Shown in pieces: positions 6,378 through 50,383 of a stretch of 57,400 nt of DNA. Position numbers and translations under genes: made by a program. The notes below the pieces were generated by a model. The model worked only from the letters and a program-made list of their open reading frames with translations, was not told where the DNA came from and did no database searches. Source of the stretch: a virus. How positions within the stretch are numbered: the stretch's first letter is position 1; each line of letters starts with the position of its first letter. Location: the IMG/VR virus record IMGVR_UViG_3300007516_000002; one strand, 5' to 3'.

Positions 6378-6674
6378 CTATTCGCATCCTTTAAGGTTAA
6401 TGTCCAGAATCTCTTTCGGAGTCATGAACGCCAATCCTGAGTATACTCGAACAGTGGTTAAAATAAGACGCGTGCGGATTTCAAGAGCCACGTCCTCCTG
6501 CTCCAGTATCAGTCGTTGTGCAGCACTGATAGGCATGCCCGCGTCACGCATAATCGCAATAGCCTCGATCAGGCGTGCGACCCACCTGCACGACTCAACT
6601 TCACTCATCGCATTGGCAGGGGATGCAAAAATAGTGACCACCATGACAGCTGCGCGGATGTTGGATATCCTCAC
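6378..6674 (-). CDS. Small putative secreted protein (98 aa, signal-peptide-like N-terminus ...IFASPANA)
   Basis: GTG start overlaps the NADAR stop (GTGA). Hydrophobic N-terminus with an A-x-A site. Confidence 0.5.
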   Translation of the reverse strand: MRISNIRAAVMVVTIFASPANAMSEVESCRWVARLIEAIAIMRDAGMPISAAQRLILEQEDVALEIRTRLILTTVRVYSGLAFMTPKEILDINLKGCE

Positions 6675-7201
6675 TTGGTGCGCCTCTTTACTGTGGAGGC
6701 CACATTAAGCGTGCCTCGGATTTCCATCAGCATCGAGCCTAGTGCGTTTCGACCCTCCCATCGCGTTGATCCTGGACGACGCACTACTCCCCACACGCGA
6801 TCCTCCCATGTAGTGCCTTCGAAGATCAAGCGGTCATTGCTCTGCAGCAACGCTTTGCATGCCTCAGGATGCTGGCCAAACTTATGCTGCAAAACATGCC
6901 ACATCACGCGGAACTTGATGTCCTCCCAGCTGCTCTTGAGATTGCATGCGCGACCCAGACCCTTTGCGTGCGCTGGGGTAGGAGCTTTTCGGATGTTTTC
7001 TGCCAATCGCGGTGAATTTGTCTTGGCGGCTGCAAATGCGTGCTCGCTGGTCGGGTAGACCTTCCTGCCCCAGCCAATGTCTACCTCGATGGGCAGCGGC
7101 GCGAAGTTGTCTAGGATGGACCACTCGCCGTCGAATATCCACATGATGTCGTCCGGTTTCGGGTCAACGACCAGCATCGGGTAGTCAGCGATTGTTTTCA
7201 T
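6671..7201 (-). CDS. NADAR (YbiA/DUF1768) family protein
   Basis: LDNFAPLPIEVD..YPTSEHAFAAAK..WEDIKFRVMWHVLQHKFGQHPEACKALLQS..GRNALGSMLMEIRG aligns by eye along its whole length with E. coli YbiA. AAGGAGA RBS. Confidence 0.8.
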   Translation of the reverse strand: MKTIADYPMLVVDPKPDDIMWIFDGEWSILDNFAPLPIEVDIGWGRKVYPTSEHAFAAAKTNSPRLAENIRKAPTPAHAKGLGRACNLKSSWEDIKFRVMWHVLQHKFGQHPEACKALLQSNDRLIFEGTTWEDRVWGVVRRPGSTRWEGRNALGSMLMEIRGTLNVASTVKRRTK

Positions 7202-10813: not shown

Positions 10814-11329
10814 ATGCGCATGAACAGCACGAAGGCTTGGCGCAATCTCTCCAACGGATCCCACCCATTCACCACAGCCGCCGAGCTACTCGCGGCAGCG
10901 ACTGAGTACTTCCAGTGGTGTGATGATCATCCGCTCCTCGAGGAGGACGTGGCAGTCTACCAAGGTGACGTGACACGCTTCGACAAGAAAAAGGTGCGGC
11001 CGTACACGCTGCGCGGATTGGCCATTTACCTTAACATTGGCATCGGAAGGCTGGAACGCTATCGCACAGACGTTGCTGACTTTGGTGCCGCCATGGAGCT
11101 TATCGACCAAGTTATCTACACGCAGAAGTTTGAGCACGCCGCCGTAGGACTCATGAACGCGAGCCTTATCAGTCGCGATTTGGGACTGGCAGACAAGCAA
11201 GAGCTCACTGGCGCGAACGGAGGCGCGATCAGAACACTTGATCTCGCTTCCGAGGCGCACATCCTAGACGAGGCGCGCAGACTTGGTATTGACGTGACCG
11301 CGCTTGGATTTGGTGTTGGGAAAACATAA
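10814..11329 (+). CDS. terS: Terminase small subunit
   Basis: ELLAAATEYFQWCDDHPL...RPYTLRGLAIYLNI is typical of small-terminase HTH families. It lies directly upstream of terL. Confidence 0.7.
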   Translation: MRMNSTKAWRNLSNGSHPFTTAAELLAAATEYFQWCDDHPLLEEDVAVYQGDVTRFDKKKVRPYTLRGLAIYLNIGIGRLERYRTDVADFGAAMELIDQVIYTQKFEHAAVGLMNASLISRDLGLADKQELTGANGGAIRTLDLASEAHILDEARRLGIDVTALGFGVGKT

Positions 11330-12827
11330 CGCCATCGATAGCGCCGCTGCGCTTCAATTGCTCGCATCGGCCGTAGCGCTTCGAAAAAGCCGGGAGCTGG
11401 GGCCGAGCGGAACGCTTCTGCCGTTCATGAGGTGGTACTTTACAGAACGAGAGGGTCTGGATCTTATCGTCGGTCCGCACCACCATATAATCACGAACAC
11501 TCTTGACCGCGTGTATTCAGGGGAAATTACACGCCTGATCATCACAATGCCTCCAGGATACACCAAGACCGAGTCTGCTGTGGTCAACTTTATCGCCAAG
11601 GGGTTTCAGATTAATCCGGCCGCGAGATTTATTCACGCGACTTTTTCAGACCAGCTTGCTGGTGAAAACAGCGAAAAGATACGAAACTTTGTCTCGCTCG
11701 ACAGCTACCAAGCGATGGCGGAGCCAAAGTTCACGGTCAAGACAGACAGCAAGGCCAAGGATCGCTGGCAGACAACCTCCGGCGGCGGTGTGCTGGCCAA
11801 AGCAGCCGGCGGACCAATTACAGGCTTCCGCGCTGGCTACATGGACAAGACCAAGTTCACTGGTGCGCTGGTTATTGACGATCCGCTGAAGCCTGACGAC
11901 GCGTTCAGCCCGAACAAACGGCTGCAGGTCAATCGCAGGGCAACAAACACATTCCGCAACCGACTGGCACATGAGGGCGTGCCGATCATTGTGGACATGC
12001 AGCGACTGCACAACGACGACTTTGTTGGGCATCTGCTCCGAGGCGGATCCGGCGACTATTGGCACCATCTTGATCTGCCTGTTATCATCGAGAGCACAGA
12101 CGTCGAGTATCCTAGGGAGTGGACGCACGGGATTCCAATTCCGCACAACCTGCCCGTCGGTCCGCTATGGGAAGAAAAGCACAGCCTCGAGCAAATCGAG
12201 GTTCTGAAGGTCGACGCGTACACATACAACAGCCAGTACCGCCAGCGACCTACGAGCATCGAGGGGGCGCTTTTCGACATGGACTGCTTCAGGGAGTGGC
12301 ACGAGCTTCCTGAAATGGACTATTTCGGGATGTACGGTGACACAGCGCTTAAGACTGGCGAACGCAACGACTTCAGCGTATTCCAGCTTTGGGGCAAGGC
12401 CAAGAACCGCTCTGGCATCTACCTGGTCGACCAGCTGCGTGGAAAATGGGAAGCCCCGGACCTAGAGAAGAATGCATTGTTCTTCTACAACAGATACCGG
12501 ACAATGGGTATTCACCCTCGCGGCTTCAAGATAGAGGACAAGGCCAGTGGCACAGGCTTGATTCAGGGGCTCAAGCGTAAGGGCGTGCCCGTCCAAGCCA
12601 TCCCGCGCGAGAGGGACAAATATACGCGAGGCCTGGATGCAGCGCCTTGGGTTTCCTCGGGAATGGTATGGCTACCCAAGAATGCGCCATGGATTAACCA
12701 CCTCCGATCCGAACTTGCGACCTTCGACGGGCTTGGCAGCGGCCACGATGACCAAGTCGACCCGATGATGGACGCGATAAACGACATGCTTTCCGGCAAT
12801 GACCGGATCAACCTGGACAACCTTTGA
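11304..12827 (+). CDS. terL: Terminase large subunit (non-ATG start likely; start uncertain)
   Basis: PPGYTKTE (Walker-A-like), LVIDDPLKPDD (Walker B) and a C-terminal nuclease-like GHDDQVD. Overlaps the terS end. Confidence 0.85.
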   Translation: MDLVLGKHNAIDSAAALQLLASAVALRKSRELGPSGTLLPFMRWYFTEREGLDLIVGPHHHIITNTLDRVYSGEITRLIITMPPGYTKTESAVVNFIAKGFQINPAARFIHATFSDQLAGENSEKIRNFVSLDSYQAMAEPKFTVKTDSKAKDRWQTTSGGGVLAKAAGGPITGFRAGYMDKTKFTGALVIDDPLKPDDAFSPNKRLQVNRRATNTFRNRLAHEGVPIIVDMQRLHNDDFVGHLLRGGSGDYWHHLDLPVIIESTDVEYPREWTHGIPIPHNLPVGPLWEEKHSLEQIEVLKVDAYTYNSQYRQRPTSIEGALFDMDCFREWHELPEMDYFGMYGDTALKTGERNDFSVFQLWGKAKNRSGIYLVDQLRGKWEAPDLEKNALFFYNRYRTMGIHPRGFKIEDKASGTGLIQGLKRKGVPVQAIPRERDKYTRGLDAAPWVSSGMVWLPKNAPWINHLRSELATFDGLGSGHDDQVDPMMDAINDMLSGNDRINLDNL

Positions 12828-12828
12828 C

Positions 12829-15800
12829 ATGAATAAGCCTACTGCCTTTTCAGACGGACTGGAGAGCCTCACAGCGTCTCTCGGAACAGCACGTGATAAG
12901 GCGACGTCTGTTGCGTACGTCGAGAAGTACATCGACGATCAGCAGCTGACGGCGGCATACAAAACGTCGTGGCTGGCCAAGAAGATCATCGACATTCCAG
13001 CCAGCGACACGTTTCGCCGCTGGCGCGACTGGCAGGCAGAAGAAGACCAGATCGAGAAGCTGGAGGAGCTTGAGAAGAAGCTTGCCATCAAAGAGAAGAT
13101 GCTGCGCGCGTATAAGTTGGCGCGCCTGTACGGATGCTGCTACGTCTACTTTGATCTCGGCGATGATCCATCCCAACCGGTCGATCCAACAAAGGTAAAA
13201 CTCGGGGGCATTCGGTTTGCAACTGTGCTGACGCACAGGCAGCTGAGTCCAGGCGAGATTGAGCAGGATGCACTGTCAGATCTATTCGGAAAACCGAAGT
13301 GGTTTGACGTGGTTGGTCCGACAACGGCTGGCATCGTGCGCATTCATCCTTCCCGCATTATTGTTCTGCTGGGCGCGGAAAGCCCCGATGAGAACCTGCT
13401 GATCGGAAGCCGTGAAGGATTCGGATTTCGTCTCGGAACAAGCGTGCTGTCCGCGGCACTGCCTGCGGTTAAGCACTTCGATTCCGTTGCGGCTAACATT
13501 GCGTCTCTGGTGTTCGAGGCCAAGATCGACGTGATCAAGGTCAAGGGATTGATGCAGATCGCAGGCAATCCTTACGAGGAACGCAAGCTGCTGGCGCGCT
13601 ACGCTCTTGCTGCAACCGCCAAGGGCAACAACGGCATGCTGATCCTTGATGGTGACACGGAGGAATACGAACAGAAGACGTACAGCTTCGCAGGCTTGCC
13701 CGACATCATGGACCGGTACAGCCAGAATGCATGCGGCGCTGGCGATGTTCCAATGTCGCGACTGTTCGGCAAAGCGCACAGCGGAATCGGAGCTACTGGG
13801 GCCGGTGAAAACGACACGCGCAATTACTACGACCATTTGTCCGCGAATCAGGAGCTTAACGTCACACCCGCAATGGCAACGTTTGACGAATGCCTGCTTT
13901 ATGCAGCGCTAGGCTCACGCCCTCCCGAGGTGCATTATCTCTGGGCGAGCCTGTGGCAGAACAGCGACAAGGAGCGGTCGGAGCTTGGTAGGATAGGCGT
14001 AGCCACCATTAAGACCCTCAAGGATACTGGGCTGATCCCTGATGAGGTGCTCTCTCGCGGAGCCGTCAACATGCTCACTCAGGCTGGCGTTATCCCCGGC
14101 TTGGAGGCAGAGTATGACGCGTACTTCGAAGAAGGCGGCGAAGCTCCATGGGACATGGACGAAGAGGGCGAGGACGGTACTGCGGAGGCGATGGTTCCGC
14201 CGAAGAAGCCCGCAGCGCAGAAGGTAGCCGACGAGCAACCGCGGGTACCAGCTGGAAGCCCTGAGGGTGGGCAGTTTGGTAAAGGGAGTGGACGTGCGCT
14301 TCCTATTCTGACAAAGGAGGACATAAACGGCAATGACAGGGACGCGTTTATCTCCGTGCGGCGATGGTCGGCGTCGTATAGCACTCAAATACGCGAGGGA
14401 TATCATCGCTTTTACAAGGACGGGGAATGGGATGCGCCTGCAGAGGTTCGCAACGCCGGTCCATTCGAGGAAGACTTTGGTTACAAGGCTGCCAAAGAAC
14501 TACATTCGAATGTCTTTGAAAAGTACACAGGTAACCACAGTGGTGATACGGCTGTTCGCGTCATCGACTTCGCTTCCGATGACGCGGCTTTTTCACGCAT
14601 GGCGTCGTTGAAACCAGGGGATACGTTTTCCGACACCGCTCCGTCGTCTTGGGCAAAAGACTCGTCCGGACTGGCCAACTACTACGGATCAAAGAACAAT
14701 ATTGTGTTTGAAATCACGGGCGGCACACCCAGGGCAACGTTTGATGTTGGACAAGCTGCATCCGTGGTCAAAGAAAGAGAGCTTTTAATTGGTCCAGGCG
14801 CTAAGTTTACCGTGGTAAGCAATAAGCATGTAAAAGCCTACCAGATCGGATCAGAAGAGCATGGATTTAACCGTGCTGACGCACAAGTGATTACGCTTCG
14901 TTCTGTCGCAGAAGACGTTATTGGCGACGGCTACATGGAACAGCCTCGCGTGCCCAAAGGCAACCCGACCGGAGGCGAGTGGGGATCCGAGAGCAGCACA
15001 TGGTCTGGTGGCGGTTGGACGCCAAAGGCAAAGTCTGAAAAGTCGCTGTCAGCTATTCTGGCTGAGGTGAAGGCAGAGACCAAGGTCAAGGAAACATCGC
15101 CAAAGCCTGACAACAAAGCCAATGCCACGGCAGAGAATACGGATGCCATCAATGCGTACGCGCAAGGAAAGATTACCAAGTCAGAGCTTGACGCTATCCT
15201 GATCGCAAATCTACCGCCGACGAAGAATGCCACAGCGGTAGAGACACAGGCCAGTATAAACAACAAGTCCGCCGCTGCTGAAGACGAAGCCTTCGCGGCG
15301 TATGGACAGGGCAAGATTACCAAATCTGAATTCGACGCTATCCTGATGGCAAACGAACAACTGACCGCCGCACCGACGCCGAAAGTCAAGAATCTCACGC
15401 CGAAGCAGAAGGCGCTAAACGCGCTTAATTCGCACAAGGCGAAGCTGGAGGCGCAGAAGGCTGCTCTTGGCACGACAGCTGCGGCGCCTGATCCGAGTAA
15501 CGCGCAGGTTGGATCCTCGTCGATAACATCCGCGTCACTACTGGCTGGAAACTGGAACTGGGACGCCGTGGAGAAGAACTTCGGTAAAGAGCCTCCGCCG
15601 CTAACAGCACAAACAGCAAGTCAAAAGCTGGCCGCCGATCACGCGCCCCTCTCCGCTGGTGAAAAGATGTTTACCACGGATTACACTGGTAGCGAGTACT
15701 CACATATCAACTACGCGCTTAGAAGTGGGCAAGATCACTACAAGATGTCGGAAATTGACTCCGCCATTGCGAAAAGCTCCGCGAAGAAGGACTTGGTGGT

Positions 15801-16110
15801 TGCGCGCGGCATTAGTCGCGCGGCAATGATAAAGATTGTGGCGAACGCAGGTGGCGAAATAAAGATTGGCGATGTGATTACCGACAAAGGCTATGCCTCC
15901 ACAACGCGCCGCGCAAGCACTGCAGCCAGCTTCGCGGGCGGCCAAGGTTACGGACTTAAGATAAGCATCCCAAAGGGTGCTCGTGCACTACCCGTCAAGG
16001 AGTTCAGCAATCATCCAGACGAGGACGAGTTTCTTTTGCCTCGTGGGTCGTCCTTCCGAGTGACACGCATCGTGGGTAACATAATCTCTGTTGATTTGGT
16101 CATCAATTAA
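12829..16110 (+). CDS. Portal protein (DUF1073-type, about the first 470 aa) continuing in frame into two ADP-ribosyltransferase-like modules (polyvalent virion protein, 1093 aa)
   Basis: ATG 12829 lies 1 nt after the terL stop and the N-terminal half is portal-like. ART module 1 has AVRVIDF / FSDTAPSSWA / KERELLIGPGAKFTV. ART module 2 has YSHINYALRS / VVARGIS / GYASTT / DEDEFLLPRGSSFRV. Confidence 0.75.
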   Translation: MNKPTAFSDGLESLTASLGTARDKATSVAYVEKYIDDQQLTAAYKTSWLAKKIIDIPASDTFRRWRDWQAEEDQIEKLEELEKKLAIKEKMLRAYKLARLYGCCYVYFDLGDDPSQPVDPTKVKLGGIRFATVLTHRQLSPGEIEQDALSDLFGKPKWFDVVGPTTAGIVRIHPSRIIVLLGAESPDENLLIGSREGFGFRLGTSVLSAALPAVKHFDSVAANIASLVFEAKIDVIKVKGLMQIAGNPYEERKLLARYALAATAKGNNGMLILDGDTEEYEQKTYSFAGLPDIMDRYSQNACGAGDVPMSRLFGKAHSGIGATGAGENDTRNYYDHLSANQELNVTPAMATFDECLLYAALGSRPPEVHYLWASLWQNSDKERSELGRIGVATIKTLKDTGLIPDEVLSRGAVNMLTQAGVIPGLEAEYDAYFEEGGEAPWDMDEEGEDGTAEAMVPPKKPAAQKVADEQPRVPAGSPEGGQFGKGSGRALPILTKEDINGNDRDAFISVRRWSASYSTQIREGYHRFYKDGEWDAPAEVRNAGPFEEDFGYKAAKELHSNVFEKYTGNHSGDTAVRVIDFASDDAAFSRMASLKPGDTFSDTAPSSWAKDSSGLANYYGSKNNIVFEITGGTPRATFDVGQAASVVKERELLIGPGAKFTVVSNKHVKAYQIGSEEHGFNRADAQVITLRSVAEDVIGDGYMEQPRVPKGNPTGGEWGSESSTWSGGGWTPKAKSEKSLSAILAEVKAETKVKETSPKPDNKANATAENTDAINAYAQGKITKSELDAILIANLPPTKNATAVETQASINNKSAAAEDEAFAAYGQGKITKSEFDAILMANEQLTAAPTPKVKNLTPKQKALNALNSHKAKLEAQKAALGTTAAAPDPSNAQVGSSSITSASLLAGNWNWDAVEKNFGKEPPPLTAQTASQKLAADHAPLSAGEKMFTTDYTGSEYSHINYALRSGQDHYKMSEIDSAIAKSSAKKDLVVARGISRAAMIKIVANAGGEIKIGDVITDKGYASTTRRASTAASFAGGQGYGLKISIPKGARALPVKEFSNHPDEDEFLLPRGSSFRVTRIVGNIISVDLVIN
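15141..15354 (+). repeat. Two copies of a coding repeat, 145 bp apart, within the portal-ART ORF (DAINAYAQGKITKSELDAILIAN / EAFAAYGQGKITKSEFDAILMAN)
   Basis: Two roughly 69-nt copies at about 15141-15209 and 15286-15354. Confidence 0.8.
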
Positions 16111-16140
16111 CAGTATGCTTTGTTTAAAGGAGTACGTCAC

Positions 16141-16305
16141 ATGGGCAAGTTTGACTGGCAGGAAGACGACACGGTGGGCATCACTGTGGTAAATCCGATG
16201 AGTACAGCAGAGCTGGATGAAGCAATTGATCGCGTAAACGCGTTGATCCGAGATGCAGAATTTGAAGCCCTGCTGGTCTCGCGGGGGCAGGACAAGGAAG
16301 ACTAA
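16141..16305 (+). CDS. Hypothetical small acidic protein (54 aa)
   Basis: AAAGGAGTACGTCAC precedes ATG 16141. Confidence 0.55.
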   Translation: MGKFDWQEDDTVGITVVNPMSTAELDEAIDRVNALIRDAEFEALLVSRGQDKED

Positions 16306-16306
16306 C

Positions 16307-17422
16307 GTGCACTTTTCAGACAACGCACCAGTAACCTCGATGCGTCGGACGGCGAACGGCTACCTGACAGGCTCTGTCCGTTGTGCGCGCACCGGGGTTC
16401 AGGACTACCTTCGTACTGAGCTTGGCCTCGAAGGCGACGGCATGATCGCGGTCTACCGGCCTGAGATGGCCGTGTTCGACAAGGCCAGCATCGCGACATA
16501 CGCGGGAAAGCCAATCACGCTGGGCCACCCCAACGGTGGCGTGGTCGACTCAGCCAACTGGAAGAAACTCGCAATCGGGACTGTTGGATCGAATGTTCTT
16601 CGTGACGGAGAAACGGTTGTCGTAGACTTCTCAATCATGGACGCCGACGCAGTACAGGGCATTGAGGCTGGCACGCGGCAAGTGAGCATGGGCTACACGA
16701 CGCCAATGGTGCTGCAGGACGGCATTGCACACGACGGCACCCCCTACCAAGCGGTGCAGACCGGACCAATCAACATCAACCACCTCGCTGTCGTCCATGT
16801 GGCGCGCGGCGGTAAAGAACTTCGCATCGGTGACGCTGCGATCAACTGGGGGGCAACCCCTATTCACCATGGTGACAAGGAGACAACCATGTCAACGAAA
16901 AGTGTGGTGCTTGGGGATGCAGCAGTGATCCTGCCCATTGCCGACGCCAATATTGTTGAGGTGTTCAAGGCCTCGATGACCAAGCAGCTCGCCGATGCGA
17001 TGTTCGAGAAGAAGAAATCGGACGACGAGAAGGATGAGGAAATCGGCAAACTCAAAGCCGAAAAGAAGAAGGTGGAGGATGCTGCAATCACTCCAGCCAA
17101 GCTCTCTGTAATGATTGCCGACCGTGTCGCTCTTGAGCAGCAGGTCAAGCTGATCGACGCCAAGATCGTTTGCGACAGTGTCGCCGACGCCGATCTTCGG
17201 CGCGCGGCAGTCGTGTCGGTGCTTGGCGATGAATCCGTCAAGGATGCTTCAGCTGCAGAGATCTCGGGAATGTTCAAGGCGGTCACTGCCGCCAAGCAGA
17301 CAGCCCCGAATGATTCCGTGCGCTCCGCTCTCGGGTCGCAGAAATTCATCGACGCCGGAACTCAGGGTTGGGGCGATGCTGTCGCCAAAGCCGCTGGCGT
17401 CAAGTTCCGGAAAGGGGCATAA
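16307..17422 (+). CDS. DUF2213-like head scaffolding/maturation protein
   Basis: GTG 16307 follows AAGGAAG. The N-terminal half has ANGYLTG..ARTGVQDY..GKPITLGHP..NINHLAVV..RGG. The C-terminal half is a Lys/Glu-rich coiled coil. Confidence 0.65.
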   Translation: MHFSDNAPVTSMRRTANGYLTGSVRCARTGVQDYLRTELGLEGDGMIAVYRPEMAVFDKASIATYAGKPITLGHPNGGVVDSANWKKLAIGTVGSNVLRDGETVVVDFSIMDADAVQGIEAGTRQVSMGYTTPMVLQDGIAHDGTPYQAVQTGPININHLAVVHVARGGKELRIGDAAINWGATPIHHGDKETTMSTKSVVLGDAAVILPIADANIVEVFKASMTKQLADAMFEKKKSDDEKDEEIGKLKAEKKKVEDAAITPAKLSVMIADRVALEQQVKLIDAKIVCDSVADADLRRAAVVSVLGDESVKDASAAEISGMFKAVTAAKQTAPNDSVRSALGSQKFIDAGTQGWGDAVAKAAGVKFRKGA

Positions 17423-18079: not shown

Positions 18080-19096
18080 ATGGCTGGCATGGACGTCTTC
18101 AACAACAATGCCTTCTCCATGACGTCCCTGACAGGCGTCGTTGAGAAGATCGACTTCGTTCCGCAAACACTCGGACAGCTGGGTATCTTCTCGCCCATGC
18201 CTGTCCGGACGCGGAATCTGTTCATTGACCGTCGTGATGGGTTCCTGACTCTGATCGGCACTTCCGCCTTGGGCTCTCCTCCAGAGGAGCTTATCAAGGA
18301 CGACCGCGATGCGGTTGCCTTCAAGACCACTCGCTTGGCGAAGGGCTTTACGATGTACGCGCACGAGGTCGAGGGCATCCGTGCCTTCGGTTCCGAGACC
18401 GAGTTCATGCAGGTTCAGGCCGAATATCTTCGTCGCATGGCGCGTGTCCGGACTGACATGGAGCTGACTCACGAGTATCATCGACTTGGCGCGCTTCAGG
18501 GTTTGCTGCTCGACGCCGACGGCACTTCTGTGATTTACGATTACTTCACTGAATTTGGCGTGACACCGCCCACAGTCATCGACTTCAACCTCGACAACGC
18601 GGCCACCAACGTCCGCCAAATCCTTACCGATCTGGCGCGTTCGCTGGTGCGAGGCTCTCGCGGTGCCGTAACCGGCGTTGCGCAGATTCACGCTCTTGTT
18701 GGCGATGCTTTCTATGACGCTCTGATCGATCACCCGACGATCCGGACGACCTATCTGAACTACGTCGCTGCCGCAGAACTTCGCACTGCAACGGCGTTCG
18801 GTGACTTTGTCTACGGCGGCGTTACGTTCCACAACTATCGCGGGACGGACGACAATTCCGTCGTGGCCATCAAGACAGATGAAGCGAAGTTCTTCCCGGT
18901 CGGCGCACCAGACGTGTTCAAGAAAGCGATGGCTCCTGCGGAGTTCGGACCTTTCATCAACACGCCGGGTCAAGACACCTACGCGATGAACATTCTTGAT
19001 CTGCAACGGCAGGCTTGGACGCGCGGTGAGCTCTACAGCTATCCGCTGTACTTCTGCCAGCGTCCAGAGGCTCTGCGTACTGGTCGCCGGACGTAA
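18080..19096 (+). CDS. Major capsid protein (lambda gpE-like)
   Basis: MDVFNNNAFSMTSLTGVVEKIDFVPQTLGQLGIFSP... is characteristic of the gpE family. 338 aa. Confidence 0.8.
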   Translation: MAGMDVFNNNAFSMTSLTGVVEKIDFVPQTLGQLGIFSPMPVRTRNLFIDRRDGFLTLIGTSALGSPPEELIKDDRDAVAFKTTRLAKGFTMYAHEVEGIRAFGSETEFMQVQAEYLRRMARVRTDMELTHEYHRLGALQGLLLDADGTSVIYDYFTEFGVTPPTVIDFNLDNAATNVRQILTDLARSLVRGSRGAVTGVAQIHALVGDAFYDALIDHPTIRTTYLNYVAAAELRTATAFGDFVYGGVTFHNYRGTDDNSVVAIKTDEAKFFPVGAPDVFKKAMAPAEFGPFINTPGQDTYAMNILDLQRQAWTRGELYSYPLYFCQRPEALRTGRRT

Positions 19097-20027: not shown

Positions 20028-20405
20028 ATGTCATTCTACGATGAAATGGCACTGGTCACGGCTGAGTTGCTTTCCCCGTCCGTGCTTGGGCAAGGTGTTG
20101 TCGTGCTAGCAAGAACAACATCGGGGGTGCCAACGCCGGAAACACCTTGGCTGGCTGTGGCACCTGTAGTCCTGACTGAGACCTTGAAAGCCGCAGTTTC
20201 TGGCGCGGGAAAATATGCGGATGGCGTAACAATCCTCGCCACAGACCTTCGCGTCGTTGCTGCTATCCCCGTCATTGATTGGCGGATGAATTCTGACGTA
20301 ACCATGACAATAAGCGTTGACGGAAAGACGCTGCAGGTCTTGCAGACGAAAGGTTTGCCAGCAGCCGGAACACCATCCGCTATCGAGATCATGGCGAGGG
20401 TCTAA
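20028..20405 (+). CDS. Structural hypothetical protein (125 aa)
   Basis: Tightly packed ORF in the head-tail joining block. Confidence 0.5.
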   Translation: MSFYDEMALVTAELLSPSVLGQGVVVLARTTSGVPTPETPWLAVAPVVLTETLKAAVSGAGKYADGVTILATDLRVVAAIPVIDWRMNSDVTMTISVDGKTLQVLQTKGLPAAGTPSAIEIMARV

Positions 20406-21439
20406 TGACCGCCACAAACAAGCAGACAAAACTCTTTCGTGCGCTTGTAGCAAAGCTGGAGCCAGAGCTTCGCAAAGCGTTCCTGCTCGCGGTTCAGGGC
20501 ATCAAAGATCGTGTTGTCTGGAAAGATCTGATTGCTGCCCTTACTGCACTGGACGTTCAGGCGGCTATAGAGGCGCTAGGAATAACCAAGGAAGCCTTCT
20601 ACGCGTATCAGACCACTGTGGCAGCTATATACGCGCAAGGCGGTGCGGCAACTGCGGCTGGCATCAAAGGACCGCGAGGCGGAGCGATAAACTTCCTTTT
20701 CGATATGGCCAACCCGCGCGCTGAGTCGTGGCTTTCTTTGAATGGTGGGGAAAAGATAACGCACCTTCTGCTTCCTGGTTTGCGCGAGTCAATCACAGGT
20801 AAGATCTTAGAAAGCTACGAGAAAGGGAATCACCCTTTTACGATAGCCAGATCTTTGATCGGGAATGTTTCCAATGGCAAGCGGACCGGCGGGCTGCTCG
20901 GTTTGTCAAGACCGCAGATGAGCTACGTCGAATCAATGCGAGCAAGGCTTCAAAACGGTTCAGCCTCTGAGATACAAAAGATACTGAGTGGAATGACGCT
21001 GCGGGACAAACGATTCGACAAGCTCCTCGTAAGAGTGCAGCATGGAAAAGCTACCCTGACCGCGAAAAACATAGAAGATATGATTAGCGGTTACACAAAC
21101 AAGCTCCTAAAGCGCAGAGGCGAAGACGTGGCTCGCACGGAGACGGGCATGGCTGTCATGGCATCCCGCAAAGAATCAATGCAGCAGGTACTTCAGAAGC
21201 TAAGCTATCCAGATAACGCAGTTATCAAAACTTGGCGGCATGGTGGCGGACCAGCCGATCCTCGCCCGCATCATGTAGCTGCGAACAACAAGCAAGTTCG
21301 AGGCTTGAACACACCTTTCGTTCTCGAAAACGGTGCAGTCTTGCAGCACGCACTTGACCCGGACGGTGGCGCGGAAGAAGTCGTAAACTGCACCTGTGAC
21401 ACTACAATGCGGATTGACCATAGTTGGAACCTGACATGA
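20405..21439 (+). CDS. Phage Mu F / SPP1 gp7-like head morphogenesis protein
   Basis: C-terminal ...PRPHHVAANNKQV..PF....NCTCD signature. Confidence 0.7.
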   Translation: MTATNKQTKLFRALVAKLEPELRKAFLLAVQGIKDRVVWKDLIAALTALDVQAAIEALGITKEAFYAYQTTVAAIYAQGGAATAAGIKGPRGGAINFLFDMANPRAESWLSLNGGEKITHLLLPGLRESITGKILESYEKGNHPFTIARSLIGNVSNGKRTGGLLGLSRPQMSYVESMRARLQNGSASEIQKILSGMTLRDKRFDKLLVRVQHGKATLTAKNIEDMISGYTNKLLKRRGEDVARTETGMAVMASRKESMQQVLQKLSYPDNAVIKTWRHGGGPADPRPHHVAANNKQVRGLNTPFVLENGAVLQHALDPDGGAEEVVNCTCDTTMRIDHSWNLT

Positions 21440-44696: not shown

Positions 44697-46538
44697 CTAA
44701 AATGGGATGTCGTCATCGGTGTAGTCGTTCGACAAGCCCATTGCGGCTAGAGCTTGCTCCCTACTACGAGTTGGCTCTGCCACTATAATGGGACGATACT
44801 TCTCAGGATCCTGCAACGGCGGACCCCCGGCGGATGGCGGAAGCTCAAACCGCGTGCCCTCGAAGTCGTACGCAATCACGTCCGGCGGCTGAGAGCTAAT
44901 CAAAACCTTGATGAACTTCGGTCGCCGCATATCTTTTGCGGCCTCCAACGCTGATAGCACATCGACAGGTGGTGGCGCAAATGCCTCGTGCTTGCGCCAC
45001 CACCTGACTGCATACTTATACGCAAACGAGTCGTGATCAGCGTCGAAGCTGATGAAGCTGCTTACCCGGCGGGAGTTTGACGTGTAGTCAACACGCAGCG
45101 TGTCAGCCTTGCCCTTCTTGCCAAGATTTCGCGAGTACGCAATGAGCGAGACGTCCATCACCTCAAACTCTTTCGGCGGCGGCTGCAGGTTAAGATCGAT
45201 GCGCTCTTCCCTTGTGGCGACGATATTTACCTCGCTGGGCTTGGCGTGTATCTTTTCCTTAATCGGAAATACAAAGCCGCATTCCTCGCAGCAACGCTTG
45301 CTGATGTGGTTGTACGTATTACAATCAGGACAAAGTCGCACAGGAGCATCCCCACCCCCCTTTCCCTTCTTTCTGGGAAGATTAGGATAGTTGATGGGAC
45401 CGAGACGTTCTGTGTTGCCAGTAAAGTCGAGCACAGTGGTGGATTTCTTAATGCTGGCTGCAATAGCTGCGAGACGCCCGGCCTTGGTATTAATATCGTA
45501 GCCATCAGCGAATAGTGGACGCGTACCGCGACCGATCATCTGCACGTGGAGTCCAGGGGATCTGGTAAGACGCAGCATGCATATCAGGTCGATGCTATGT
45601 TGGTCAAAACCTGTTGTCAACTTTCCCATGTTACAAACCGCACGGAGCTCGCCGCTCTTAAATCGGGCAAGAACGTCGTCTCCGTCATTTCTCTCGCTGT
45701 GGACAGCCTCAGCGGGATATCCTTTTACAGTCATCATGTCGGCCACCAGCTCAGTATGCTCGATTGACTGGTTAAACACCAGCCATGAACGCCGCCCCTC
45801 TGCCTCCGCGACAGCAATTGTTTTGTCGACTGCGCGCTCAAGGATGCCTTGACTAATCATTTCATCCGCTGCGTCTCGTGCGTCAAATTCACCAGCTACA
45901 ATCTTAACTTTGTCCGCGTCAAGCTCAAATCCAGGGAACCTTGGTACTGGCCGAATCAGGTACCCGTTGTCGATCATCCAGACAAAAGCTTCGCCATCGC
46001 TCATATCAAACGCGATGGAGTCAAACAGCTTTCCGTCGGTCAGGGATCCTGATCCAGTTCTGAATGGCGTGGCTGTAAATCCGATAACCACCAGGTTTGG
46101 ATTAGCGAGACGAAGTCCAGCGATAAACTTTCCGTACGAGGAGTTATCCTTGTCGCTGATTAAGTGCGCCTCGTCCACCAGAAGGAAGTCGATGTGGCCA
46201 AAAGACTGCGGCCGCTTGGCAACGGAGGCGATGCCGACAAACGTCACTTGCGCGTGAACGTCTCTTCGCTTGAGTCCAGCACTGAAAATACCAGCTGGTG
46301 CCATGGGAAAGACTTTGATCAATGTGTTGTAGTTATTTTCAATCAGCTCCTTGACATGTGTGGCCATCACGATTCGCGTCTTCGGGTACGTGGCCACCAT
46401 CTGCCAAATGAACATAGCCAGCAGCAAGCTTTTGCCTCCGCCTGTTGGAATTACGATCAGCGGATTGTCATGCAGTTTCTGGTGCACGTGACTCCAGAGT
46501 GCCTCTGCGGATGCGATCTGGTAGTCTCGCGGCTGCAT
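44697..46538 (-). CDS. SF2 (DEAH) DNA helicase with an internal zinc ribbon and an SSB-like C-terminal tip ...DYTDDDIPF
   Basis: PTGGGKS (Walker A), LLVDEAHLIS (DEAH), TATPFR, QMIGRGTR (motif VI), CPDC..CCEEC. The C-terminus is read directly. Confidence 0.85.
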   Translation of the reverse strand: MQPRDYQIASAEALWSHVHQKLHDNPLIVIPTGGGKSLLLAMFIWQMVATYPKTRIVMATHVKELIENNYNTLIKVFPMAPAGIFSAGLKRRDVHAQVTFVGIASVAKRPQSFGHIDFLLVDEAHLISDKDNSSYGKFIAGLRLANPNLVVIGFTATPFRTGSGSLTDGKLFDSIAFDMSDGEAFVWMIDNGYLIRPVPRFPGFELDADKVKIVAGEFDARDAADEMISQGILERAVDKTIAVAEAEGRRSWLVFNQSIEHTELVADMMTVKGYPAEAVHSERNDGDDVLARFKSGELRAVCNMGKLTTGFDQHSIDLICMLRLTRSPGLHVQMIGRGTRPLFADGYDINTKAGRLAAIAASIKKSTTVLDFTGNTERLGPINYPNLPRKKGKGGGDAPVRLCPDCNTYNHISKRCCEECGFVFPIKEKIHAKPSEVNIVATREERIDLNLQPPPKEFEVMDVSLIAYSRNLGKKGKADTLRVDYTSNSRRVSSFISFDADHDSFAYKYAVRWWRKHEAFAPPPVDVLSALEAAKDMRRPKFIKVLISSQPPDVIAYDFEGTRFELPPSAGGPPLQDPEKYRPIIVAEPTRSREQALAAMGLSNDYTDDDIPF

Positions 46539-47236
46539 CAGGTCACAACCTGGAAGAGTTTCTCGACGCGCTTAGTGGCGTTTCCCTTGTTAACCCGCGT
46601 GCTGTGCTCTATCCGTAAGACCTCCTTTACGTCGGGAGGTGCGTTATATTCGCTGACAAAGACAGTATGCCCTTCCGCAACACGCTCGCGACACCACTTC
46701 CAGAATTGAAGCGAATTGAACGACTTGTCGCTGTACCCAACGGTTCCTGCGTATGGCGGATCGCAGTAAATCAGACTTGGCGTGTTTGCCGAGATTGGCA
46801 TGTCCGAGTAGGACATGCACGTGAAGTGAACACCCTCAAGCTTCTTTCCCTGCTTAACAATTGAACGCGACGGACCGCCCGCGCAGTTTGTGCCATTTGG
46901 CGGTCTCGCGTAGCTGCCCCAGTACGTGGCTCCGAAGCTGCATTGAACGGAAACAAAACCCACAACAGCCGGATGGTAGAGGCTTTGGTTGTTCCGCACG
47001 TGGTTGTACTGCGCCTCGGACACGTAGTCCGGAGGCACCCATCCATCTCGCGCAGCAGTCAGCAGCGCCAGCTGGTTGAAGCTCAAATCGTTGCCCCACC
47101 TCTGGTTTTCCACATGCTCAATCATGTTTCCGCCACCCACGAATGGCTCTATCCAAGGCTGTCCTGGCTTTCGCGCAGCCAGCATAAGCGGAAGGATGTG
47201 TTTGACCATAGCACGCTTGCTGCCCATGTACTTCAT
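46538..47236 (-). CDS. DNA adenine methyltransferase (Dam/D12 class)
   Basis: KYMGSKR, EPFVGGG (motif I), IYCDPPY (motif IV). Start taken at MKYMGSK (47236) after AGGAAAG. Confidence 0.85.
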   Translation of the reverse strand: MKYMGSKRAMVKHILPLMLAARKPGQPWIEPFVGGGNMIEHVENQRWGNDLSFNQLALLTAARDGWVPPDYVSEAQYNHVRNNQSLYHPAVVGFVSVQCSFGATYWGSYARPPNGTNCAGGPSRSIVKQGKKLEGVHFTCMSYSDMPISANTPSLIYCDPPYAGTVGYSDKSFNSLQFWKWCRERVAEGHTVFVSEYNAPPDVKEVLRIEHSTRVNKGNATKRVEKLFQVVT

Positions 47237-47258
47237 CTGTGCACTTTCCTGCTGCTGC

Positions 47259-47510
47259 CTACGCTTTGATATCTGTATCCGATCGAAAAGGGAAGCAAAG
47301 ACTTCGGAGAAGATCTTCGCTGGGCGCTTCATCAAATTCGACATCGACACTTTCGTATGGATCTGCTGTCGGAAGGTCTGCCACCAACCTTATCCTTCCG
47401 GGAATCGTGGCGTGCATAGAGTAGTCGTCGAACTCTGTAAATCCCCCACTCGCAAGAATGGAGGCTTCAAGTTTAGCAAAGTCCGCGTGAACAAACCGAT
47501 TGATCTTCAT
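47259..47510 (-). CDS. Hypothetical protein (83 aa)
   Basis: Coupled ORF. Confidence 0.5.
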   Translation of the reverse strand: MKINRFVHADFAKLEASILASGGFTEFDDYSMHATIPGRIRLVADLPTADPYESVDVEFDEAPSEDLLRSLCFPFRSDTDIKA

Positions 47511-47777: not shown

Positions 47778-48551
47778 TCACCGCCAAACCGTATCGTCGC
47801 CCCACCATCTCTCCATAACGCGGCAGTAAAGAAGCTGCGCAATCTGAAAAACAACTGGCACCACTACGCCATTTCCTATTTGCGTAAGGCGGTGTGCCCG
47901 ATCGGCCATCCCATCATCCACTCTGCGAAGGAGGGGTCTAGGCCAACCGGTTCCTGGTACAAAAGGGCTGTCGGCGATAGACTGCAAATCCGCTTGCCCG
48001 CACCAGTTCCATTGTCGAGATTCGCAAGGACGAAAGGCCTCGACCAGTCCTTGCCCTCCCGCGCACTTACGGTAGGCAATAATGTAGATGCGCTCGCGTT
48101 TATGGGGAGCACCAATGGCGGAAGCAGGCAGAGTGTACCATTCCGCATCATACCCTGCTTCGGAAAGCCCGTGTAGGACAACGTCGAGACCCCTATCTTT
48201 AAGAGCAGCCACGTTCTCGATTAGAACGCCGCGCGGATTTGTCTGCTGTATAGCACACAGCATTCGAAACCACAACCCGGATCGCGCGCCGGAAAGTCCA
48301 GCCCCCGTACCGGCCACACTCAAATCCTGGCATGGAAATCCTCCGGAGACAATGTCCGCTGCGGGGAAAGCGCATATCTTTGTGATATCGCCAAGGTTAG
48401 GAATGCTCGGAAAACGTCTTTTCAGCGTAGCTGCTGCGTGTTTGTTGATTTCAGAAAACGCGATTGTCCGGAACGTACCCGTTCTTTCCATCGCCATGTG
48501 AACGCCACCAGCGCCGGAAAAAAGGTCCAGCACGGACAGTATCTTTGTCAC
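47778..48551 (-). CDS. DNA cytosine-5 methyltransferase (compact, 257 aa)
   Basis: DLFSGAGG (I), GFPCQDLS (IV), ENV (VI), HKRERIYI (VIII), GNGVVVPV (X). Confidence 0.9.
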   Translation of the reverse strand: MTKILSVLDLFSGAGGVHMAMERTGTFRTIAFSEINKHAAATLKRRFPSIPNLGDITKICAFPAADIVSGGFPCQDLSVAGTGAGLSGARSGLWFRMLCAIQQTNPRGVLIENVAALKDRGLDVVLHGLSEAGYDAEWYTLPASAIGAPHKRERIYIIAYRKCAGGQGLVEAFRPCESRQWNWCGQADLQSIADSPFVPGTGWPRPLLRRVDDGMADRAHRLTQIGNGVVVPVVFQIAQLLYCRVMERWWGDDTVWR

Positions 48552-49504
48552 TTAATCGGATCCCATCCCGCGCATCCCTTGGGGATGAAGTCGTCCGGAA
48601 GGATGCTGTTGAATTTGTTGCAATGCCATTTACCGTCGTCAGCTGTCTCCGCAAACGTACAAGATCGGCAGTTCTTTTCAGGGCTGGTTTGGTAGTGGCA
48701 GATCTCGCGGAACGCGCAAAACTTGCACTCGAACCAGCTGGGATCATCTGTGATCCGCATCGGAGGCAATCGCGACTCCACCACCTTCTTGGCGTTGTCG
48801 ATGTGGTATAGCGCCACCTCTTTCTTGTAGTGGACAATCTCTGCGTAGAGCTCGTCGTCGTTTTTATTGACAGCTATGTACAGCGTCCAGTTCAATCCAA
48901 AGTAATGCATGTAAATCTGCATCTGAACGTAGTGGACAGGCTTGCTTGTCAGCACGCCGCCCTTGACCAAACTCTTGAACGACTTGTCCGAGTGCGTCTT
49001 TTCCTCCAGCCCACCCCATCCTTCGGGGAGTCCGGGACCGCGGATCATGCCGTCGCTGGATCCAGCGAAGTGCCCCCGATGATCTTTGAAGCCCCACTGC
49101 TTCGGACCTTTGCCAGCATCAGCGGCAAGTGCGATGTGCGCAGCGTCGTTGCTGACGTCAGTGTAGTGTACTGGTACATCTTCGTGCCAAGGAACACACC
49201 TGTACAGGTAGTCGGATCCCGCGTCCGCTTGCGTGGGCGAGTAGCAGAGACGTTCCGAATAATCCAGCACTTCGAAACCGGCCGCGCGGAGATACCGATT
49301 AAAGCGGAACTCCTCCTCGTGGCCGCGATCAAAAAGACGCCGGACTCGACCTAGGTGGTTTTCCTCGTATGCCCAGCGAAATCCATACCAAGCTTGGCGA
49401 AGGCATCGACCACCAATGGAGCTGGCACCAAGATGGCCGCGACGTTTTTCACCAACGGTTTCTCTACGCGCTTTGTCGATGGCGGCTACAATGGCACTGC
49501 CCAA
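48548..49504 (-). CDS. PD-(D/E)xK exonuclease, Cas4/RecB-like, with a Cys cluster
   Basis: GASSIGGRCLRQAWYGFRW at the N-terminus and CKFCAFREIC (CxxCx5C) near the C-terminus, plus an extra CRSC..HC. Confidence 0.65.
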   Translation of the reverse strand: MGSAIVAAIDKARRETVGEKRRGHLGASSIGGRCLRQAWYGFRWAYEENHLGRVRRLFDRGHEEEFRFNRYLRAAGFEVLDYSERLCYSPTQADAGSDYLYRCVPWHEDVPVHYTDVSNDAAHIALAADAGKGPKQWGFKDHRGHFAGSSDGMIRGPGLPEGWGGLEEKTHSDKSFKSLVKGGVLTSKPVHYVQMQIYMHYFGLNWTLYIAVNKNDDELYAEIVHYKKEVALYHIDNAKKVVESRLPPMRITDDPSWFECKFCAFREICHYQTSPEKNCRSCTFAETADDGKWHCNKFNSILPDDFIPKGCAGWDPIK

Positions 49505-49507
49505 TTG

Positions 49508-50383
49508 TTACGTCTCCTTGTTTTCAATAATGGGTAGTTGCACATACTCTTCCTTGTCTTGCAACTCAGAATGTCCTGCGAACCACTCCTGCCCACTAAA
49601 AAGGGTACCACTTCTGGCCACTCTGGCGTCCTGGATTCGTTTTTCTGATATTGCGAAAAAGTCTGGATCAAGCTCAATGCCGATGAAATTGCGATCCAGT
49701 AGGACACACGCGATTCCGGTAGTTCCGCTGCCCATAAACGGGTCGAGCACAGTGTCACCAGTGTTCGACCAGGACATTATGTGATCCCTTGCGATACTCG
49801 ATGGAAACACAGCCGGATGCCCGTGTTCATTTTCGACCTCTGGCTGTACAGGCCACCAGTTATTTCGTCTGCCGAACTCTTTGCTGGCTTTTCGAATTTC
49901 AAGTTTAAGATCGCCTGTCGGCTTTCTTCTTCCCTTTTGCGCACCGCCGAATGAAATATAACGATTGCGCCGGTCACGTATAAGGTTCACTCGGCTGGGC
50001 GAGCCCTTTGCCATAACAAACATGTACTCAAAGTTCTGCGTGTAGCACAAGGTACTTCCCACAGCTCCGCCGCCTTCTTTTGTCCAAATCATGGTGTCGT
50101 GAAGATTAAATCCGCACTCCATCGCAAACAGTGCCTGCTTGAAGCTGGTCCCAGTCTCGCTGCCGTTGATGGTCGCGTCTGAGACTACCCAGACGACAAC
50201 GCCGCCGTCAGCAGTCACGCGGAAGAGCTCCGTGAGCACAGTTTTCCATACGTCGTCGTTCCAGAGATCGTTGTTGCCGTTGTACGTGCGAAGGTTGTCA
50301 TACGGCGGAGACGTGACGGTCAAGTTAATTGAACCATCCGCCAGCTCGCGCAGACGTTCCGCGCAGTTACCAAGCATCAGCAT
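49508..50383 (-). CDS. DNA N6-adenine/N4-cytosine methyltransferase (beta class)
   Basis: VTSPPYDNLRTY (motif IV S-P-P-Y) precedes DPFMGSGTTGIA (motif I). Confidence 0.85.
   Translation of the reverse strand: MLMLGNCAERLRELADGSINLTVTSPPYDNLRTYNGNNDLWNDDVWKTVLTELFRVTADGGVVVWVVSDATINGSETGTSFKQALFAMECGFNLHDTMIWTKEGGGAVGSTLCYTQNFEYMFVMAKGSPSRVNLIRDRRNRYISFGGAQKGRRKPTGDLKLEIRKASKEFGRRNNWWPVQPEVENEHGHPAVFPSSIARDHIMSWSNTGDTVLDPFMGSGTTGIACVLLDRNFIGIELDPDFFAISEKRIQDARVARSGTLFSGQEWFAGHSELQDKEEYVQLPIIENKET

Follow-up and report, generated by a model that had tools for sequence, protein, structure and literature searches.

The 57,400-nucleotide (nt) stretch of viral DNA recorded in IMG/VR as IMGVR_UViG_3300007516_000002, hereafter called the window, carries a gene at 12829..16110 on the plus strand that encodes a portal protein continued in the same frame by two ADP-ribosyltransferase (ART) modules. 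The product of this portal-ART-ART fusion gene counts 1093 amino acids (aa) from the ATG at 12829 to the stop codon at 16108-16110. An upstream in-frame ATG at 12799 gives a 1103-aa form, which is how an identical protein, P0019 from the Joint Genome Institute (JGI), is already on record, and the frame 12799/12829..16110 (+) has no internal stop. A sequence-only reading of the window had proposed that a DUF1073-type portal runs on without a stop into two ART modules, each with its R, S-T-S and E-x-E landmarks in order; it had also quoted several motifs, two EQPRVP sites and a 23-aa repeat. The open frame and both modules were borne out by the searches described below, and each of the quoted elements lies where it had been placed. 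We consider this architecture and the ART identity of its modules highly probable. The fusion protein is an unusually elaborate member, with two stacked R-S-E ART cassettes, of the head-protein-borne effectors, a kind known from comparative genomics.

The portal core occupies aa 1-441 (12829..14151, +) and belongs to the PF06381/DUF1073/TIGR01555 type. Indeed, PF06381 is matched over aa 39-391 with an E-value of 3.8e-86 and 289.5 bits against a cut-off of 33.8, TIGR01555 with 228.8 bits against a cut-off of 196.25, and phrog_146 with an E-value of 6e-103. The closest solved structure is the portal of Pam3 (8hds, E 8e-91 over aa 7-468), and homology to the solved Pam3 and E217 portals suggests that the protein would form a dodecameric ring at the unique vertex of the capsid. 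The core is followed at 14152..14232 (+) by the acidic run DMDEEGEDGTAE (aa 442-453, nt 14152-14187) and the Lys/Pro-rich linker AMVPPKKPAAQKVAD. Then comes the first copy of a junction motif, EQPRVPAGSPEGGQFG (14233..14280, +, aa 469-484), whose EQPRVP starts at nt 14233; the second copy, EQPRVPKGNPTGGEWG (14938..14985, +, aa 704-719), has its EQPRVP from nt 14938. The succession of acidic run, linker and motif is nearly identical in P0020, a protein from an independent assembly.

Judged by its sequence, cargo module 2 (15640..16107, +, aa 938-1093) is clearly an ART, and unambiguously so. It matches PF03496 with an E-value of 2e-24 and 86.4 bits, the gathering score being 23.4. Its catalytic residues are R993 (nt 15805-15807), S1024-T-T (from nt 15898) and E1065-D-E1067 (nt 16021-16029), and they fall within or beside the landmarks YSHINYALRS (nt 15697-15726), LVVARGIS (nt 15793-15816), GYASTT (nt 15889-15906) and DEDEFLLPRGSSFRV (nt 16018-16062, with E-D-E at 16021-16029). 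In the alignment with ExoT (6gnn, E 9e-9), the R, the S-T-T and the E-x-E are in register, as they likewise are with C3-like enzymes. Weak matches to the Alt-like family phrog_802 were also obtained.

Cargo module 1 (14299..14919, +, aa ~491-697) is more divergent. Its catalytic candidates are R577 (nt 14557-14559), S606 (nt 14644-14646) and E649-x-E651 (nt 14773-14781), and its landmarks are AVRVIDF (nt 14551-14571), FSDTAPSSWA (nt 14626-14655) and KERELLIGPGAKFTV (nt 14770-14814, with E-R-E at 14773-14781). An exhaustive phmmer search of 1.84 billion representatives returned 13 proteins matching this module. The best of them, P0002, is a MuF-domain protein carrying a domain 51-54% identical to module 1, and P0010, P0013 and P0014 are MuF fusions as well. 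In P0009 and P0014, the stretch that matches module 1 falls within a PF03496 domain recognised by Pfam; for proteins of this sort the phmmer E-values range from 1.5e-6 to 3e-4. In a family alignment of eight sequences, R577 (in VRV) and E649 are invariant and E651 is kept in seven, while five of the eight match PF03496 independently. When module 1 and P0002 were compared by hhalign with an independent ART alignment, the two profiles matched with a probability of 75% and an E-value of 2.5e-5, the R, S-x-S and E-x-E being in register. Module 1 also resembles the first cargo module of P0020, itself an ART (30% identity, E 1e-18). An AlphaFold (AF2) model built from the eight-sequence alignment reached a predicted local distance difference test score (pLDDT) of 83.2 and a predicted template modelling score (pTM) of 0.79; a single-sequence model was unusable (pLDDT 37). 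The Foldseek comparison with the PDB, which the sequence-only reading had named as a check on its ART assignment, came out in favour of that assignment: the top 50 matches of the module 1 model were all R-S-E ARTs, with a probability of 1.0 and template modelling (TM) scores up to 0.60, and included C2-I, C3, Vis, iota-like, Certhrax, Tre1, ExoS/T, VahC, CDTa and Vip2. Based on transitive homology, profile-profile comparison and a confident fold model, module 1 is predicted to be a divergent ART.

Both modules seem to have kept what catalysis requires. The 29 ART domains that were aligned share, without exception, the catalytic Arg and Ser and the second Glu; the set is made up of 26 portal-borne C-terminal ARTs (module 2 among them), module 1, the first ART of P0020 and the MuF-borne domain of P0002, and this conservation argues for maintained activity of the two modules. 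The E-x-E arrangement suggests that ADP-ribosylation probably takes place on arginine. Since a BLASTP self-comparison of the extension revealed no similarity between module 1 and module 2, the two ARTs do not stem from a recent duplication. They are separated, behind the second motif copy, by an Ala/Lys/Ser/Thr-rich linker (14986..15639, +) containing two 23-aa repeats, AYxQGKITKSE[LF]DAIL[IM]AN, at 15145-15213 and 15289-15357 (+), which are identical at 17 of 23 aa and 51 of 69 nt. This repeat was found in no relative, and the linker with its repeats gave a sub-threshold match to the VbhA antitoxin family (E 0.009).

Several observations weigh against an enzymatic module 1. Taken alone, it has no direct match in Pfam, PHROG or PDB sequences, and a two-sequence profile (module 1 with P0002) found none in the PDB. 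The alignment used for modelling contained recognised ARTs, which could have biased the fold. Furthermore, the module has S-S-W where ARTs have S-T-S, and V-R-V in place of the usual aromatic-R-G. It could then have an ART fold that has degenerated into a spacer, an NAD+- or target-binding module or a decoy, leaving catalysis to module 2, an arrangement that would still be compatible with the delivery scheme proposed below. We think this improbable, since in the alignment R577, S606 and E649-x-E651 coincide with the catalytic positions of every one of the 26 portal-borne ARTs, P0002 keeps the same residues at 51-54% identity, implying purifying selection, and the model is confidently ART-like.

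To place the fusion gene among its relatives, we rely on architecture counts over the 120 best relatives of the fusion protein, all of which have a C-terminal extension. The PF06381 portal is combined with a PF03496 ART in 25 of them (626-1298 aa), with a Zeta_toxin/AAA_33 domain in four, and in about 89 with PF23474, Acb1. One of the 25 ART proteins, P0136, bears both Acb1 and an ART, and in another relative, P0044, the portal is followed by the motif and by an unknown module of ~170 aa. These ART, Zeta/AAA_33, Acb1 and ART+Acb1 cargoes ride on portals that are 44-84% identical in their cores. In terms of sequence, the fusion gene is thus one allele of a polymorphic cargo slot on PF06381 portals.

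Two alignments illustrate how the tandem could have arisen. P0020 is laid out as portal, motif, ART, motif, linker and Zeta kinase, that is, with the layout of the window protein and the last module swapped. Residues 704-1091 of the window protein, comprising motif, linker and second ART, can be aligned over their full length with the complete cargo of P0023 (469-821, E 1e-33). Relatives of the first cassette (motif and ART1) are the MuF-borne domain and the portal-proximal module of P0020; those of the second (motif, linker and ART2) are the single cassettes of P0023 and P0026. The tandem ARTs are best read, from these sequence relationships, as the accretion, or stacking, of two cassettes.

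Portals of this kind also occur in cultured phages. The Pseudomonas syringae phages Orisa01-03 and Orimi01 encode, in one annotated coding sequence, a 703-aa 'hypothetical protein' that consists of a portal (aa 85-517, matching the solved E217/Pa193 gp19) and an R-S-E ART. In Orisa03 (L126:2270-4381), the join shows an acidic run and the looser motif DENKHPRSDDGKFG. The nearest cultured phages are Pseudomonas phage phiPSA1 (gp44) and Synechococcus phage Ssp-JY39, both with portal-Acb1 fusions (Pfam E-values 1.9e-43 and 7e-39). Closer matches to the extension were scarce: a scan of viral contigs for its relatives and a megablast of the fusion gene against cultured phages both found none, and a word-indexed search with the whole extension gave one distant match only.

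The junction motif is the element that links these observations. In the fusion protein it reads EQPRVPxGxPxGGx[FW]G, with one copy before each ART. The two motif regions are identical at 35 of 78 nt, as against 11 of 16 residues, which suggests that in the window the peptide itself is under selection. In the portal clade to which the window protein belongs, portal and cargo meet at aa ~445-496, and the motif was found at this junction in 22 of the 25 portal-ART and three of the four portal-Zeta relatives. It recurs in very large proteins, recovered through query positions 2-23 of the module 1 search: P0004 with four copies, P0007 with five, P0011 and P0012; P0007 combines ART-PolyVal with PF03496. 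P0011 (L128:6001-14850) is a protein of 2949 aa encoded on a 39.7-kb phage contig, with a PF06381 portal at its N-terminus and modules set between four clear motif copies.

A degenerate DNA pattern for QPRVPAG detected at least 120 viral stretches. Among the matches listed, 62 of 131 continue in frame with ..GG.[WFY], which was absent from the search pattern, and the viral set gives the extended consensus K-[YF]-x-P-[DN]-QPRVPAG-[NS]-[PS]-x-GGQW-T-x-x-GG. In a Pfam scan of 54 motif-bearing viral open reading frames (ORFs), the carriers were PF04860 portals (18), Mu-type portals (3), MuF (2) and an S78 protease (1), and the cargo comprised CdiA-CT RNase A (9), CdiA_C (1), deaminases (2), ARTs (3-4), Zeta toxins (2) and a 2H domain (1). 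As far as these sequences tell, head proteins (three portal families and MuF) are widely joined to swappable cargo of the polymorphic-toxin type through this strongly conserved motif. No model in Pfam or NCBIfam covers it, and a literature search for the strings QPRVP, QPRDP, QPRAP and PRVPAGS returned no relevant paper.

Cargo exchange at the motif has left visible traces. In the chimera P0045, Acb1 is joined within the motif (...QPRAPKGSPNGG|PATLYVSRKV), where its near-twin P0044 continues with GGQWVKAGGG; read as sequence, the pair marks a recombination junction inside the motif. In four loci with a PF04860 portal fusion, L020:1-3426, L101:1969-5492, L041:3260-6228 and L014:1-2739, there lies 3' of the fusion a short ORF in which the final 60-110 portal codons and the motif recur at 77-95% DNA identity before the sequences diverge. 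On this pattern the repeated ORFs are identified as orphan cargo cassettes, as in cdiA/rhs loci. A small abutting ORF of 81-141 aa follows each cargo in L020, L041 and L101. Orphan cassettes were sought in the window as well, and none was seen there. In another viral contig, L012 (IMGVR_UViG_3300020603_003181), motif copies at 1448, 3254, 4844 and 6650 are spaced by 1.6-1.8 kb, and the ORFs containing them consist of the C-terminal half of an HK97-type portal, the motif and a cargo; this is either a tandem cassette array or an assembly artefact.

What the motif does at the protein level can be approached through comparison. A role in processing, which the sequence-only reading had suggested beside one as a hinge, is plausible by analogy with phage Mu, where the prohead protease shortens the portal gp29 by 124 residues at its C-terminus. 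The motif as a general head-protease site was considered and is weakened, since within this phage it occurs only in the fusion gene. In addition, three viral ORFs (L038 M018, L110 M055 and L086 M042) end 2-6 residues behind the motif and have no room for cargo. These ORFs may have lost it, or the motif may do something by itself; such ends speak against a pure release-site role. A 210-aa NCBI protein, P0015, is a standalone ART that starts with MNPNHVPAGVPEGGQFDDAGG; here a variant of the motif heads a free cargo protein, a position easier to reconcile with targeting or threading than with a release site. The motif, its spread over portal families and the orphan cassettes, all of which appear to be undescribed so far, make up most of the value of the finding. 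We would go further only tentatively. The motif, in the form K-[YF]-x-P-[DN]-QPRVPAG-x-[PS]-x-GGQ[WF], may be the hallmark of an unrecognised but widespread portal-borne polymorphic effector system, in which it would mark where cassettes with ARTs, RNases, deaminases, kinases or Acb1 attach to MuF and to at least three unrelated portal families. It would act as the point where cassettes are exchanged and stacked, a reading with which the orphans, the P0045 chimera and the stacked pair in the window all agree, and as a peptide signal for the release or threading of twelve copies of each enzyme; this broader idea strikes us as doubtful.

For the fusion protein itself, we propose the following course of events. 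Membership in the portal ring would build twelve copies of each enzyme into every procapsid. In the E217 and Pa193 structures, DUF1073-type portals have their C-terminus directed towards the head interior, and the cargo would accordingly hang inside the head above the portal channel. A head protease would probably cut it free in the flexible motif and linker regions, following the Mu precedent. The cargo could then leave through portal and tail with the DNA and, by analogy with T4 Alt and with what has been hypothesised for MuF toxins, ADP-ribosylate host proteins in the first moments of infection. That the cargo lies inside the virion is likely on the strength of these analogies; that it is released and ejected as active enzyme falls slightly short of an even chance. 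As for the chain as a whole, in which a genuine single-gene portal with two ART cassettes is packaged, released and ejected and then ADP-ribosylates host proteins, we lean modestly towards it.

Some observations pull against this delivery scheme. Folded enzymes of 20-25 kDa would need unfolding to pass the portal and tail channel. In just two of the 90 remaining relatives, mostly portal-Acb1 fusions, is the motif found, and it occurs nowhere else in the proteome of this phage; the motif-bearing ends that carry no cargo, described above, point the same way. In the related contigs L003 and L004, which share the head-module synteny, a separate Acb1 gene lies directly 3' of the portal-ART gene. 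Physical tethering is thus not obligatory for Acb1, and the 3' end of the portal gene may partly be an insertion hotspot. Furthermore, our literature searches found no experimental study on any portal-borne cargo, portal-ART included, and nothing relevant on Acb1-portal fusions.

The cargo could instead be a portal-borne polymorphic toxin used for competition between strains or phages, for superinfection control or in the lysis-lysogeny decision, with a small downstream ORF as its immunity gene. The repertoire behind the motif (CdiA-CT RNase A, CdiA_C, deaminases, Zeta toxin, ART) is indeed typical of toxins, the orphan cassettes repeat portal end and motif as cdiA/rhs loci do, and small ORFs abut the cargo in L020, L041 and L101. 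The MuF-ART Bxa, which is arginine-directed and bactericidal, has two adjacent immunity genes (PMC11699363). In the window, a 61-aa ORF (16120..16305, +) directly follows the fusion gene and exactly spans the gap between it and the DUF2213 gene, a slot that holds a standalone Acb1 gene in relatives and immunity genes in toxin loci. However, this ORF has no match in the family libraries. What likeness it has is a weak one to the N-terminal ~45 residues of standalone Acb1 from relatives (E 5e-5 in a search over two sequences), and to no known immunity protein; a lost Acb1 gene may have left it behind, or it could encode a leader peptide or something akin to an immunity protein. The same cargo slot holds a counter-defence enzyme, Acb1, in relatives, and the orphan cassettes belong to PF04860-type loci. 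In the survey of Jamet et al. 2017 (PMC5576092), MuF toxins were nearly confined to temperate phages, whereas a DNA polymerase, a helicase and a recombination module are encoded by this phage itself, and a scan of 20 window ORFs against family libraries brought up no integrase. A role in competition therefore appears improbable.

It is also conceivable, with a still lower probability, that the enzymes act late in the producing cell and are not ejected, modifying host or phage proteins as T4 ModA/ModB do or blunting defences that sense late proteins, and that the fusion to the portal is a by-product of a permissive 3' end. Cargo genes do occur both fused to the portal and separately just 3' of it, the ejection of the cargo rests on analogy, and Iyer et al. 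2022 (PMC9503650) raise the idea of ARTs that counter immunity aimed at the packaging apparatus. On the other hand, the junction peptide is conserved across three unrelated portal families and MuF, and in the window it is conserved as peptide and not as DNA, and both facts suggest that attachment to a head protein is important; the module 1 domain also sits on MuF, another internal head protein, in P0002. An assembly or sequencing artefact, in which a missed stop, a frameshift or a chimeric join fused two or three genes, might be suspected in a metagenomic contig whose extension has no close match in viral contigs or cultured phages, but it is hardly credible and for practical purposes excluded by the recurrence of portal-ART proteins in independent assemblies (25 others among the best 120 relatives, with the acidic-run/linker/motif junction in many of them) and in single annotated coding sequences of the cultured Orisa01-03 and Orimi01, and the contig moreover closes on itself through a 123-nt terminal repeat.

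Returning to the delivery of portal-borne enzymes with the DNA, several known systems offer points of comparison. The sequence-only reading had regarded the architecture as undescribed, and here it has to be corrected. Effector domains (PBECR RNases, 2H phosphoesterases, Nudix, ARTs) fused to portal and MuF proteins were reported by Iyer et al. 2017 (PMC5512222) and 2022 (PMC9503650), the earlier paper describing, under the heading of polyvalent proteins, PBECR and 2H domains fused 'to MuF or portal domains'. Moreover, NCBI names the commonest form of the window's relatives 'anti-CBASS protein Acb1 family protein', and nearly all close portal relatives carry cargo. Like polyvalent proteins, the fusion protein unites several effector domains in one polypeptide encoded among virion genes and predicted to be packaged and injected; its two ART domains sit on a portal within the head module, which places it among the polyvalent or head-protein-fused effectors, and P0011 looks like an extreme relative of the polyvalent type. 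It differs from the systems of Iyer et al. in having two R-S-E ARTs in tandem on the portal, and both are known from computation. We did not find the junction motif, its occurrence in several portal families or the orphan cassettes mentioned in these papers.

T4 Alt and the MuF-toxin fusions, which the sequence-only reading had invoked, proved to be the right functional analogies. T4 Alt is likewise an R-S-E ART that resides in the head, is injected with the DNA and modifies host RNA polymerase and other proteins. Its N-terminal capsid-targeting sequence directs it to the scaffolding core and is removed by the T4 prohead protease. The ARTs of the window are, as encoded, covalently joined to the portal, whereas Alt is an internal protein in its own right and does not belong to the portal; the sequence relation is limited to the ART fold, so that the likeness is functional only. 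MuF toxins (those of Jamet et al., Bxa and Apk2) share with the fusion protein a constant head-protein N-terminus with a variable C-terminal toxin, frequent ARTs, a position among packaging-module genes and a proposed delivery with the DNA. In their case, however, the carrier is MuF, present in 1-2 copies per capsid for SPP1 gp7 (PMC5576092), and that survey describes no portal fusions; in the window it is the portal, expected in 12 copies per virion, and MuF is separate, as had been noted from the sequence, and cargo-free. The phage also differs from MuF-toxin phages in showing no temperate sign in the ORFs tested and no recognisable immunity gene.

The portal-Acb1 fusions (PF06381+PF23474) are the nearest kin: they belong to the same portal clade (44-47% identity), extend after the acidic run and share the head synteny. 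They differ in their cargo, a 2H phosphodiesterase degrading immune signals, in having one module and, for most, in lacking a QPRVP-type motif. The CdiA/Rhs/MafB loci, with their pre-toxin motifs (VENN, DPxGL) and orphan C-terminal (CT) cassettes (Zhang et al. 2012, PMC3482391), offer another parallel. There too a short motif stands at the boundary of carrier and toxin, orphans repeat the carrier end and the motif, and a small ORF follows each toxin; in the portal system it is the PF04860-portal loci, not the window, that have such orphans. The CdiA/Rhs/MafB carrier, in contrast, is a secreted filament or shell and not a virion portal, and the motif sequence is unrelated.

Long C-terminal portal extensions that are absent from or invisible in virion structures are known as well. 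In Mu, the last 124 residues of gp29 are missing from virions, which is attributed to the protease gpI (PMC11915804). The DUF1073-type portal of E217 has a C-terminal barrel 'projecting into the head', with residues 529-765 of 765 unseen (PMC10329688), and the Pa193 portal has the same topology and likewise unseen C-terminal residues (PMC11456595). Neither Mu gp29 nor the Pbunavirus (E217/Pa193) gp19 has an ART or a QPRVP motif, and we accordingly rejected gp29 as a motif-bearing precedent. The 765-aa Pbunavirus portal (L127:1204-3501, corresponding to Pa193/E217 gp19) ends in a domain of ~140 aa (624-765) that is identical in 9b41 and invisible by cryo-electron microscopy (cryo-EM). Its C-terminus, ENPRGS...YGFIKGT...DGDEVD, was considered as a family-I inorganic pyrophosphatase, an assignment that is not statistically supported (E 0.34).

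The delivery of phage proteins together with DNA is well understood in few models, namely the T4 internal proteins, the P22 ejection proteins and the N4 virion RNA polymerase (vRNAP). An enzyme-carrying portal would fix the dose at twelve per virion and place the enzymes at the exit channel. The cargo in the slot could serve either a first strike, as with ARTs and toxins, or counter-defence, as with Acb1. The conserved junction and the exchange of cassettes suggest a modular slot that might be used to engineer phages delivering chosen proteins; should the motif indeed be the hallmark of an effector system, the window would hold a naturally occurring programmable slot for protein delivery on a portal, filled with two cassettes. 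Cultured phages with such portals are at hand: Orisa/Orimi for portal-ART, phiPSA1 and Pam3 for portal-Acb1, and E217/Pa193 with their 237-aa extension invisible in cryo-EM, Orisa03 being a tractable experimental system. For annotation, it follows that many 'hypothetical' or 'Acb1 family' proteins are portals with cargo.

The genome around the fusion gene has the organization of a tailed phage. The first 123 nt of the window are identical to its last 123 nt (1-123 and 57278-57400), which shows that it is a complete, terminally redundant (or circularly closed) tailed phage genome of about 57.3 kb. The head block runs in the order TerS, TerL, fusion gene, DUF2213, decoration protein (lambda-D-like), capsid protein, adaptor, head closure and MuF-like. 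The small terminase gene (TerS) lies at 10814-11329, and the large one (TerL, 11304..12827, +) is directly 5' of the fusion gene, as expected for a portal gene. The DUF2213 gene (16253..17422, +), of the Pa193_gp24-type head maturation protease or scaffold, matches PF09979 (E 4e-45) and phrog_530 and probably starts at a GTG near 16307; its product is a candidate enzyme for processing of the portal extension. The lambda-E-type capsid protein is encoded at 18080-19090 (+). The separate MuF-like head morphogenesis gene (20405..21439, +) is assigned to phrog_3517 'head morphogenesis' (E 1.8e-57); its product gave no match in a direct Pfam search and is 30% identical to that of the corresponding gene in syntenic relatives, which carries PF04233.

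The replication module comprises a family-A DNA polymerase, a processivity factor, a helicase, two DNA methyltransferases, a Cas4-like exonuclease and a Sak4-like annealase. Given the two methyltransferases (46538-47350 and 49508-50383, -) and the Cas4-domain exonuclease (48548-49504, -), the phage appears to be well equipped against host defence beyond its portal cargo. The window also has a gene of the NADAR family of ADP-ribose-processing enzymes. A part for it in ART-linked self-immunity was considered and is unsupported, NADAR being widespread in phages (502 records). The gene, at 6671-7201 (-), encodes 176 aa; NADAR is also present in relatives with portal-ART, and the copy in L004 is 53% identical to that of the window.

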